Shown here: in pieces, positions 50,034 to 53,478 of the stretch
Layout: the number at the start of each line of letters is the position of its first letter
Numbering within the stretch: the first letter of the stretch is position 1
Notes under the pieces: generated by a model
Databases searched by the model: none
What the model was told of the DNA's origin: nothing
Seen by the model: only the letters and a program-made list of their open reading frames with translations
Position numbers and translations under genes: made by a program
DNA from: Escherichia coli
GTDB lineage: Bacteria > Pseudomonadota > Gammaproteobacteria > Enterobacterales > Enterobacteriaceae
Direction: 5' to 3' (one strand)
DNA: 64,000 bases
NCBI RefSeq assembly: GCF_044647545.1
Contig: NZ_CP172818.1

Positions 50034-51691
50034 CCGATACTCCAAAAGAGCACCGCCAGTAATTGTGGGGTGATAATGCGCAGGAACATCACCAACGGAT
50101 AGACAGTGGCATAAGAGAGTGCCGCCGCACCGCTGGTTGGATGAAGATTATTAGCAAATGCCAGCGCCGGAGGATCGGTCATGGAGCCAGCCAGCATCCC
50201 GCACATGGTCAGGTAATTCATTTTGGCTAACATCCGCGCCAGAATGCCGACCGTAATCAGCGGAACGGCGGTGATCAGCGCACCATAACCAATCCAGCTT
50301 AGCCCTTCGCCATTGACCAGGGTATTCACAAAATCCCCACCAGATTTCAGACCAACGACCGAGAGGAACAGCACGATCCCCAGCTCCCGCAGCGCGAGGT
50401 TGGCACTTGGCGGCATAAACCAGTACAGCTTGCCGATACTGCCGATACGCCCGAGGATCAACGCCATAATCAGCGGACCGCCCGCCAGCCCCAGTTTCAA
50501 CGCGGCCGGGAATCCCGGCACAAAGACGGGAATAGAACCTAACAATACGCCAAGCCCGATACCAATAAACACCGGCAGCATCTGAACCTGTTGCAGTTTT
50601 TGCTGCGCATTCCCCAGCACATTGGCAACGGCATCAATTGCGGACGGACGCCCCACCAGGTTGAGGATATCGCCGAACTGCAGGCTGATATCGCCACTGG
50701 CGACCAGTTCGACCCCGGCACGGTTCAGGCGCGAGATAACAACGTCATAGCGTTCTTTAAAGTGCAGGTCGCGAATACGTTTACCGAGCACGTTTTCATT
50801 GGTGACCACCACACGCTCGACGCGTAAATCAGTGCCTTTCGTGGACAGCGAGGTATCGACCTCCTGACCAATCACCAGTTGCGCATTATGTAAATCCGCT
50901 GGCTGCCCCACCAGATGCAGCAAATCGCCCAGTTGGATAATGGTATCTGGCGAAGGTACTTTTAGGGTTTCTTCTCGTTTCAGACGCGAGCAGATAATTT
51001 TGTCGCCGTTGAGAATCGGTACATCTTTAATGGCTAAATCATGCAGGTTAGGGTTCTCAACGCGAATATTGATAGTCCTGATCAGCGCGCCGCCATTGGT
51101 GCGAGAAGACTCGTGCTGCTGGGCTTCTGTCTCGACATTGACGCGGAAAATAACCCGCAACATCCACATGGTGAACAAAATCCCGCAAATACCGAATGGA
51201 TACGCCATCGCGTAACTCATCCCCATCTGATCGACCATTTCCATTGGTGTACCCAGGTCGCGCAAGATCTGCTGCCCTGCCCCCAGCGCTGGCGTATTGG
51301 TTACCGCACCGGAGAAAATCCCCAGCACTACCGGCAGTGGAATATCAAACAGTTTATGCAGGATGGCGGTAACCAGACCCCCGATGATGACAATCAGAAC
51401 AGCAAACAGGTTGAGGCGTAATCCGGAGACGCGCAATGAGGCAAAGAAGCCCGGCCCTACCTGAATCCCGATGGTATAAACGAACAGGATCAGGCCAAAT
51501 TCCTGAATAACATGCAGCATATCGCTACTTAATGTCATCCCCGCCTGAGAAACAAAATGGCCGACGATGATCCCACCAAACAGCACGCCGCCAATACCTA
51601 ATCCTATGCCGCGAAATTTGACGTTGCCGATAAACAAACCGACGACTGCCACCAAAGCCAGAATACTGACCGTTAATGCTATATCACTCAT
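50030..51691 (-). CDS. yidE: Putative transporter of the AAE (aspartate:alanine exchanger) family
   Basis: 553 codons from the ATG at 51691; two membrane domains separated by paired TrkA_C-like soluble domains. Confidence 0.88.
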
Positions 51692-51843
51692 CGTCCATTT
51701 CTCTTGAGATAACATTTTAATTGCTACGGATTATGGCTGAATCGGTGAAGCAGATTTGCCTTATAGCGCACATTATCACGGGAAAGAACGTGCCGAAATA
51801 TCTTAAACAGGCGAAATTTAACGCATTGTTGAAGAAGAAAGAC

Positions 51844-51871
51844 AAAAAAAGCCCCACCAGAATGGCGGGGC
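51844..51871 (-). terminator. Rho-independent terminator of the ibpAB operon
   Basis: Minus-strand GCCCCGCC-ATTCTGG-TGGGGC hairpin followed by a U7 run, 16 bp past the ibpB stop. Confidence 0.8.
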
Positions 51872-51886
51872 AAAGAGAATAGCTAG

Positions 51887-52315
51887 TTAGCTATTTAACG
51901 CGGGACGTTCGCTGATAGCGATACGCTGCGCTGCGATGGGTTCAGGCTCATTACGAATTAAATCAATATGCAGTAAACCGTTTACGAAGGTTGCACCAGA
52001 GACTTCCATATTTTCAGCCAGCGTAAAGCTCAGGCTAAATGGCTGATTCATAAGCCCTTGATGCAGCCATTTTTTCTCTTCTTTTGGCTGCTCCGGCGTG
52101 CCTTTTACGCTCAGGCGCGTACCTTCCAGTTGAATCTCTAAATCTTCCTGACGAAAACCTGCCAGCGCAAGGGTAATGCGGTAGTGGTTATCGTCGCTTT
52201 TTTCAATGTTGTACGGCGGGAAGCTCTGGCTTTCACCGGCGTTTTGCAGTGCGTTGGCCAGTTTGTCAAAACCGATCCATTGACGCATCAGTGGGGATAA
52301 ATCGAAGTTACGCAT
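51887..52315 (-). CDS. ibpB: Small heat shock protein IbpB
   Basis: 142 codons from the ATG at 52315 ([12 protein letters not shown]); alpha-crystallin domain. Confidence 0.93.
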
Positions 52316-52426
52316 AGTCATTTCTCCTTCTAAGAAGCGAGTAAGTACCTGCAAATCCGAAGATTCGCATATGCTCCCTGACGGCGAGCATGGAGATGTC
52401 AGGCCGCGCCAGGCGGCCTTAGGGAA

Positions 52427-52840
52427 TTAGTTGATTTCGATACGGCGCGGTTTTTTCGCTTCCGGAATCACGCGTTCAAGATCGATATACAGCAGACCAT
52501 TCACCAGGTTAGCACCACGAACATGAATGTTCTCAGCTAACTGGAATTTGCGTTCAAAGTTGCGTTCAGCGATGCCCTGGTACAGATAGGTGCGCTCTTT
52601 TTGTTCGTCGGCGTGAGCACCTTTCACCACCAGCAGATTATCCTGGGCGGTAATTTCCAGTTCGCTCTCAGCAAAACCAGCCACAGCGATAGCAATGCGG
52701 TAATGGTTTTCGTCTACCAGTTCAACGTTATACGGAGGGTAGCCGCCATTACTCTGGCTCTGGTTGTTTTCTAAGTGGTTAAACAAACGGTCAAATCCAA
52801 TAGCAGAACGGTAAAGCGGGGATAAATCAAAGTTACGCAT
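52427..52840 (-). CDS. ibpA: Small heat shock protein IbpA
   Basis: 137 codons from the ATG at 52840 ([12 protein letters not shown]); alpha-crystallin domain. Confidence 0.93.
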
Positions 52841-52930
52841 AATCAATAGCTCCTGAAATCAGCGAGAATGTAAGACCTTCCACAATGGACAGGTCAGGTA
52901 GCCAGAACACCCATCAGGCGCGTCCTCATC

Positions 52931-52960
52931 GGCTACGATGTAAAAATGGGTCTGGAAATG
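52931..52960 (-). promoter_or_regulatory. Sigma-32 heat-shock promoter of ibpA
   Basis: Minus strand reads CTTGAAA-N14-CCCATTTTT, matching the sigma-32 consensus, about 90 bp upstream of ibpA. Confidence 0.7.
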
Positions 52961-53145
52961 AACTTTTCAAGCCTTATCAGCGGACTTTTTTTTGCAGTTT
53001 ATGGTCTATTGCATAGACTGAGGGGGCAGCACGAAACGTTAAAGTGCGATAGCCGCCACAGTGCGACGTAATGATGATGTTATTTTCAGCAAGGGATCGC
53101 TATAACTCATCAGGCCAACACCCACGATCAACAGATGAATTTATT

Positions 53146-53478
53146 ATGATAAGAAATGTGTTGTTAGCGTTCATGATATGCAGCGGAATGACATTACTCG
53201 GAGGATGCTCCAGCGTGATGTCCCATACCGGGGGGAAAGAAGGAACGTATCCCGGCACCCGCGCCAGCGCCACCATGATTGGCGACGATGAAACCAACTG
53301 GGGCACTAAGTCGCTGGCGATTCTCGATATGCCGTTTACCGCTGTGATGGACACGCTTTTACTGCCGTGGGATGTGTTCCGCAAAGACAGCTCGGTGCGC
53401 TCACGCGTTGAAAAAAGCGAAGCCAACGCGCAAGCCACCAATGCGGTTATTCCACCGGCCAGAATGCCTGATAACTGA
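53146..53478 (+). CDS. yidQ: Small lipoprotein YidQ
   Basis: 110 codons from ATG 53146; lipobox LLGGC. Confidence 0.8.
   Translation: MIRNVLLAFMICSGMTLLGGCSSVMSHTGGKEGTYPGTRASATMIGDDETNWGTKSLAILDMPFTAVMDTLLLPWDVFRKDSSVRSRVEKSEANAQATNAVIPPARMPDN

Follow-up and report, generated by a model that had tools for sequence, protein, structure and literature searches.

The 64,000-nucleotide stretch of Escherichia coli DNA analysed here (the window) carries the yidQ/ibpA-ibpB/yidE locus at 100% identity to many RefSeq chromosomes, and the region is found in 5419 of 5426 complete genomes. RefSeq annotates the features of the locus in the order yidR, yidQ (divergent), a sequence feature termed 'ROSE', ibpA, ibpB and yidE. 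Read along the minus strand from position 53100 to position 51800 of the window, a non-coding stretch is followed by ibpA, a spacer, ibpB and a terminator. The ibpA coding sequence (52427-52840, minus strand) runs from an ATG at 52840 to a TAA at 52429-52427 and encodes a small heat-shock protein of 137 amino acids (Pfam HSP20, 85.6 bits). The ibpB coding sequence (51887-52315, minus strand), whose ATG is placed at 52315 by RefSeq, likewise encodes a small heat-shock protein, of 142 amino acids (Pfam HSP20, 79.4 bits). At 51851-51871 on the same strand the ibpAB operon has an intrinsic terminator, in which GCCCCGCCATTCTGGTGGGGC precedes T7. Several small RNA models (Hrs1, anti-hemB, PrrF, ncS54 and GcvB) match at 51843-51977 with scores far under their gathering scores; we rejected these matches as false positives caused by the stem and U-tract of the ibpB terminator. 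The start of yidE, also on the minus strand, is ambiguous, as the list of open reading frames places it at 51715 (561 amino acids) and RefSeq places it approximately at 51691, 24 nt downstream (MSDIALTV..., 1662 nt including the stop codon).

To compare this locus among relatives, we used IbpA as a query and retained one genome per species, which yielded 80 Enterobacteriaceae loci with 91-100% protein identity. The genera represented include Escherichia, Citrobacter, Salmonella, Klebsiella, Enterobacter, Kluyvera, Cedecea, Buttiauxella and Mangrovibacter. For each locus, 175 nt of upstream sequence and 10 nt of coding sequence were aligned, and all 80 sequences are distinct.

The initial annotation had described a near-consensus sigma-32 promoter of the form CTTGAAA-N14 on the minus strand, about 90 bp upstream of ibpA and followed by a long 5′ untranslated region. 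An exact CTTGAAA is present as the -35 box (52965-52971, minus strand), and it is separated by exactly 14 nt, AGTTCATTTCCAGA, from a sigma-32 type -10 box, CCCATTTTT, located at 52942-52950 on the minus strand. The motif and spacing are thus as described, and the estimated distance is essentially right, there being 101 nt from the end of the -10 box to the ibpA ATG. The interval originally assigned to the feature (52841-52960) encompasses the leader and the -10 box but leaves out the -35 box and the first 4 nt of the promoter spacer. The pattern CTTGAAA-N13-15-CCCATNT occurs once in the window and in none of 100 dinucleotide-preserving shuffles of it. The sigma-32 consensus, as reportedly given by Cowing in 1985 and by Nonaka in 2006, consists of CTTGAAA at -35 and a CCCCATNT-like box at -10, approximately 13-15 nt apart. 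Both boxes of the ibpA promoter and the distance between them agree with this description, with the -10 box carrying three C residues rather than four.

The promoter is strongly conserved in the 80 species. Within the -35 box, the C, T, T, G, A and final A are invariant, and the remaining A is replaced by T in only three sequences. The 14-nt spacing is constant, and variation in the -10 box is limited to CCCAT, CCACAT, CCCTAT or CCTCAT, in each case followed by TTT. Genomic SELEX has placed an RpoH holoenzyme peak in the ibpA/yidQ spacer (PMC5493296), and ibpAB is under sigma-32 control according to several papers (PMC10410725). A scan for sigma-70 promoters between 51700 and 53300 returned no sites, and hence no overlapping housekeeping promoter and no divergent yidQ promoter at the stringency used. 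A sigma-54 promoter has been reported for ibpB, and a search for TGGCAC-N5-TTGCW with up to three mismatches gave 314 matches where 344 were expected; this search has no power and was set aside. Further upstream, a conserved A8 tract (52986-52993, minus strand) lies approximately 50-58 nt before the probable ibpA transcription start. The block surrounding it (52999-52985) has a mean column identity of 0.84 in the 80 species, versus 0.52 for the sequence between the block and the -35 box. The tract resembles an UP element and may serve as one.

The ROSE-like leader of ibpA has been described as 96 nt long in a review (PMC6096418). Because of this published length, we place the transcription start near 52936, 6 nt past the -10 box, so that the 5′ untranslated leader would occupy 52841-52936 on the minus strand. 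The initial annotation had suggested that this leader contains a ROSE-type RNA thermometer occluding the Shine-Dalgarno (SD) sequence, and had named an Rfam scan for ROSE-like elements as a check. When positions 51700-53300 were scanned against all Rfam families, ROSE_2 (RF01832) was the sole match above threshold. The match (52834-52906, minus strand) scores 100.4 bits versus a gathering score of 65, with an E value of 2.4e-23, and extends over model positions 1-73 of 73. It includes hairpins II and III of the leader (see below) and the start codon, ends 7 nt into ibpA, and corresponds to the identical 73-nt interval that RefSeq annotates as ROSE. In the same scanned region, ROSE_3 gave a weak match of 20.8 bits versus a cut-off of 43, and RF00435 (ROSE) gave no match at E ≤ 1.

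Minimum-free-energy and centroid folds of the leader concur on a structure of three hairpins, with the SD sequence located in the third. Hairpin I (52899-52935, minus strand) is 5′-terminal, beginning within 1-2 nt of the probable 5′ end of the transcript, and the base pairs of the Rfam model do not extend to it. With each hairpin folded in isolation at 37°C, hairpin I has an energy of -15.8 kcal/mol, hairpin II (52874-52895, minus strand) is also stable at -9.0 kcal/mol, and the thermosensing hairpin III (52850-52866, minus strand) is the weakest at -4.1 kcal/mol. In hairpin III, the anti-SD strand CUCGCUG, which includes UCGCU at 52865-52861, pairs with CAGGAG, which includes the SD sequence AGGAG at 52854-52850. 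This pairing agrees with the Rfam consensus structure, and the G of UCGCU is bulged in both the consensus and the minimum-free-energy fold. The leader therefore displays the sequence and structural features of the ROSE family, namely a covariance-model score above the gathering score, a position in the 5′ untranslated region of an HSP20 gene, three hairpins (ROSE elements have two to four) with the SD in the 3′-proximal one, and a UCGCU motif with a bulged G opposite the SD. An Rfam match and an SD-sequestering hairpin, the absence of either of which was to count against a thermometer, were both found; together with the RefSeq annotation and published work they support the original assignment. 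An 11-codon open reading frame (AUG AGG ... UGA) within hairpin I was considered and attributed to chance, as it is without an SD sequence and its AUG is unconserved in the alignment.

Folding calculations were less instructive. The folding energy of the whole leader has a z score of -1.72, and 12 of 200 shuffled sequences are equally stable. As a control for SD occlusion, the segment from the SD to the start codon was held fixed while the upstream 81 nt were shuffled to give 400 leaders. For AGGAG at 30°C, the native leader has a predicted mean pairing of 0.72, the same as the shuffle mean, and 53% of the shuffled leaders reach at least this value. Between 30 and 42°C the predicted pairing declines from 0.72 to 0.65; this drop of 0.076 compares with a mean of 0.009 among shuffles, 7.7% of which match it. 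Isolated hairpin III has a model melting temperature of about 75°C, far beyond the physiological range. The nearest-neighbour parameters used in such calculations ignore non-canonical pairs that are known in ROSE hairpins. Forcing the SD open costs approximately 1.6-1.9 kcal/mol, and this cost changes with temperature in the opposite sense to that expected, since the coding region offers compensating alternative pairings; the calculation was discarded as uninformative. Folding at 20-50°C was likewise rejected as evidence either way, since the change in SD accessibility is small and indistinguishable from that obtained with shuffled upstream sequence. Hence, of the folding comparison at 30 and 42°C that had been proposed as a check, the expected hairpin pairing the SD with UCGCU was recovered, but occlusion of the SD is no better than in shuffled leaders and the comparison does not discriminate. 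Nearest-neighbour folding neither supports nor refutes thermosensing by the ibpA leader, and as native SD occlusion does not exceed that of shuffled leaders, the case for a thermometer rests on the covariance-model match, on cross-species conservation and on published experiments. Temperature-dependent folding that fails to separate a genuine thermometer from shuffled sequences is unfit for accepting or rejecting other thermometer candidates.

Leader identity to the window sequence ranges from 0.49 to 0.99 in the 80 species (median 0.75) and is unevenly distributed. By column identity, hairpin III with its loop scores 0.94, and hairpin II and the inner stem of hairpin I score 0.78 each; the value falls to 0.64 in the spacer between SD and AUG and to 0.13-0.39 in the linkers between hairpins, the two linkers flanking hairpin III standing at 0.39 and 0.64. 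All 80 leaders carry UYGCU, and AGGAG is present in 79. When the three-hairpin structure is imposed on the alignment, 88.9% of cells hold standard pairs, compared with 83.2% in column shuffles, and none of 500 shuffles reached the native figure; sliding the pairing partners by 1-3 columns reduces paired cells to 51.8% or less. The covariation score of 0.230 likewise exceeds the shuffled value of 0.142 (0 of 500).

The three hairpins differ in the kind of evidence they provide. Hairpin I shows the strongest covariation in the leader, although the paired section of the Rfam model does not include it: 92.4% of cells in its inner stem are paired and seven of nine pairs are changed on both sides, one of them being CG in 59 sequences, UA in 17 and UG in 4. 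Its outer stem is paired in 70% of cells. Hairpin II is paired in 94.7% of cells, with two of eight pairs compensatory, such as one that is AU in 35 sequences, GC in 34 and GU in 11. In hairpin III, 99.8% of core cells are paired and the core is essentially invariant; it therefore provides evidence of conservation and none of covariation. Only 61% of cells keep the two outer pairs that the Rfam model assigns to hairpin III. RNAalifold, given the 80-species alignment without a supplied structure, recovers the inner stem of hairpin I and hairpin III, and does not recover hairpin II. Taken as a comparative result, these patterns indicate that all three hairpins are maintained by selection. The SD hairpin has one conspicuous variant: Cedecea neteri NBRC 105707 has CAUGAG (approximately positions 1478-1483 of its locus, L049) where the other 79 leaders have CAGGAG, a change that costs the hairpin one pair. 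Even so, IbpA from this strain is reported to repress the strain's own 5′ untranslated region (PMC10474464).

Of 20 diverse relatives, 11 have a ROSE_2 match at or above the gathering score upstream of ibpA. The nine leaders that fall below threshold (L013, L031, L036, L046, L049, L050, L052, L061 and L071) keep the hairpin III block together with UCGCU, or UUGCU in L046. Because these leaders keep the block, the curated ROSE_2 model is somewhat narrow and under-calls outside the group comprising Escherichia, Citrobacter, Salmonella and Klebsiella.

With its promoter elements, its ROSE_2 match, its three-hairpin architecture, and conservation and covariation in 80 species, the region is almost certainly the native regulatory region of ibpAB, the small heat-shock operon of E. 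coli, composed of a sigma-32 promoter and a ROSE-like thermometer leader. For sigma-32 dependence, for temperature-dependent melting and translation, and for binding by IbpA, we draw on published experiments. The E. coli ibpA thermometer and Bradyrhizobium japonicum ROSE1 are the best-studied ROSE-like elements; in such elements the SD is blocked by U(U/C)GCU, and, in published reporter and probing work on this sequence, induction by the ibpA thermometer is approximately 4-fold between 25 and 42°C (PMC3669281). In addition, IbpA oligomers bind the ibpA leader and repress ibpA translation, with ibpB and rpoH likewise repressed at translation. This repression requires stem-loops SL1-SL3 and R93 of IbpA and is lifted once aggregates recruit IbpA, and the Taguchi laboratory has called it a 'safety catch' on a leaky thermometer (bioRxiv 10.1101/2020.04.20.050740; PMC10410725; PMC10474464).

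These observations suggest the following sequence of events. RNA polymerase carrying sigma-32 (RpoH) would initiate about 96 nt upstream of ibpA at the near-consensus heat-shock promoter, and accumulation of sigma-32 after heat shock would increase ibpA transcription. At low temperature, hairpin III, in which the SD sequence AGGAG is paired with UCGCU and a G is bulged, would restrict binding of the 30S subunit. As temperature rises, hairpin III would open gradually and translation would increase. Free IbpA oligomers would bind the leader and reduce translation until aggregates titrate IbpA away. Control of ibpA would accordingly present a textbook layered stress response, in which transcription from a sigma-32 promoter is combined with an RNA thermometer and with autoregulation by the encoded chaperone.

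A different weighting of these layers would make the leader mainly a protein-responsive operator, at which IbpA oligomers block translation and induction follows from their loss to aggregates, with melting of minor importance. In a reconstituted system, repression of translation by purified IbpA depends on the ibpA 5′ untranslated region; IbpA also binds the leader RNA, and its effect needs R93 and is lost when the stem-loops are mutated (PMC10410725; PMC10474464; bioRxiv 10.1101/2020.04.20.050740). However, the same authors call the two mechanisms coupled, not alternative. The translated IbpA sequence of the window has both R93 and Y34, the thermal response in silico is weak, and the arms of hairpin II, the apical bases of hairpin I and the loop of hairpin III are more conserved in sequence than pairing requires; the hairpin II arms, CCUGUCC and GGAAGG, are nearly invariant across Enterobacteriaceae. 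Set against this are the presence of every sequence and structural characteristic of the ROSE family and, by the account in PMC3669281, which cites Waldminghaus 2009, the temperature responsiveness of leader reporter fusions. We regard predominance of the operator as possible, with the balance of evidence leaning away from it, and such an operator complements the combination of promoter and thermometer rather than replacing it. Equally tentatively, the conservation pattern could mean that hairpins I and II together provide a platform that IbpA oligomers recognize specifically, the leader then being primarily an aggregation-sensing protein-RNA switch for which the ROSE hairpin is the output module.

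Hairpins I and II might instead serve chiefly to stabilize the mRNA against 5′-end-dependent decay, leaving regulation to hairpin III only. The very stable hairpin I (-15.8 kcal/mol) at the extreme 5′ end, whose pairing is kept by compensatory changes, would suit this role, and the 5′ hairpin of Pseudomonas ibpA leaders has been discussed in such terms, the SD hairpin alone being sufficient for thermoregulation there (PMC3669281). Stem-loop variants studied by the Taguchi group nevertheless indicate that SL1 and SL2 affect the translation controlled by SL3 (bioRxiv 10.1101/2020.04.20.050740). We consider it rather unlikely that stabilization is the chief function of both hairpins, whereas a stabilizing role for the 5′-terminal hairpin I is plausible and is compatible with the thermometer and promoter acting as proposed. 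The notion that the promoter motif and hairpins arose by chance in an ordinary intergenic region and regulate nothing gains something from the folding energy and predicted SD occlusion, neither of which is clearly above shuffled controls. It is refuted, to the point of negligible probability, by the uniqueness of the promoter motif in the window and its absence from the 100 shuffles, by the Rfam E value, by extensive published experiments on this exact sequence, and by patterned conservation with compensatory changes across 80 species.

The E. coli ibpA ROSE-like RNA thermometer was reportedly described by Waldminghaus et al. in 2005 and 2009 (cited in PMC3669281 and PMC6096418). The window element is this same element (RF01832), with an identical sequence, a full-length match and nothing different; it was already known, annotated and experimentally dissected, so that our analysis is a correct re-identification that adds nothing new and opens no new question. 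The 73-nt ROSE_2 model spans only hairpins II and III of the leader, with hairpin I outside its paired region. The founding ROSE element, ROSE1 of B. japonicum hspA (RF00435), shares the principle of a U(U/C)GCU anti-SD in the last hairpin and a small heat-shock gene downstream; ROSE1 is alpha-proteobacterial and has four hairpins, whereas the E. coli ibpA leader has three. Pseudomonas ibpA thermometers share the gene context, the sigma-32 promoter and an SD paired with U(U/C)GCU in the 3′ hairpin, but their leaders are 61-62 nt long with two hairpins, in contrast to 96 nt and three hairpins in E. coli (PMC3669281).

A second thermometer is associated with the same operon. The spacer between ibpA and ibpB (52316-52426, minus strand) comprises 111 nt up to the ibpB ATG at 52315, or 105 nt up to an in-frame ATG upstream at 52321, and not the 70 bp given by the initial annotation. 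Four hairpins are predicted within it. In the last of these, CUCGCUUCUUAGAAGGAG (52324-52341, minus strand), the ibpB SD is predicted to pair with a second UCGCU motif, and among 74 related loci that have ibpB this motif is found in all 74 and the SD in 73. The ibpB SD hairpin gave no match to a Rfam ROSE model at E ≤ 1 in the scan of 51700-53300. That ibpB has its own RNA thermometer has been reported (bioRxiv 10.1101/2020.04.20.050740). The ibpB thermometer thus represents known biology for which an Rfam family appears to be absent. Like its ibpA counterpart, it pairs the SD with UCGCU in a short hairpin, but it has its own sequence and different upstream hairpins, and published accounts do not regard the two thermometers as identical; the one of ibpB is credited to Gaubig et al. 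(2011), cited in PMC6096418 and bioRxiv 10.1101/2020.04.20.050740. The spacer also contains, 7 nt past the ibpA stop codon, a GC-rich hairpin of 7 bp (AGGCCGC/GCGGCCU; 52419-52401, minus strand) that is without a U-tract. This hairpin could act in processing or stabilization, or as a partial terminator, and so yield a monocistronic ibpA transcript.
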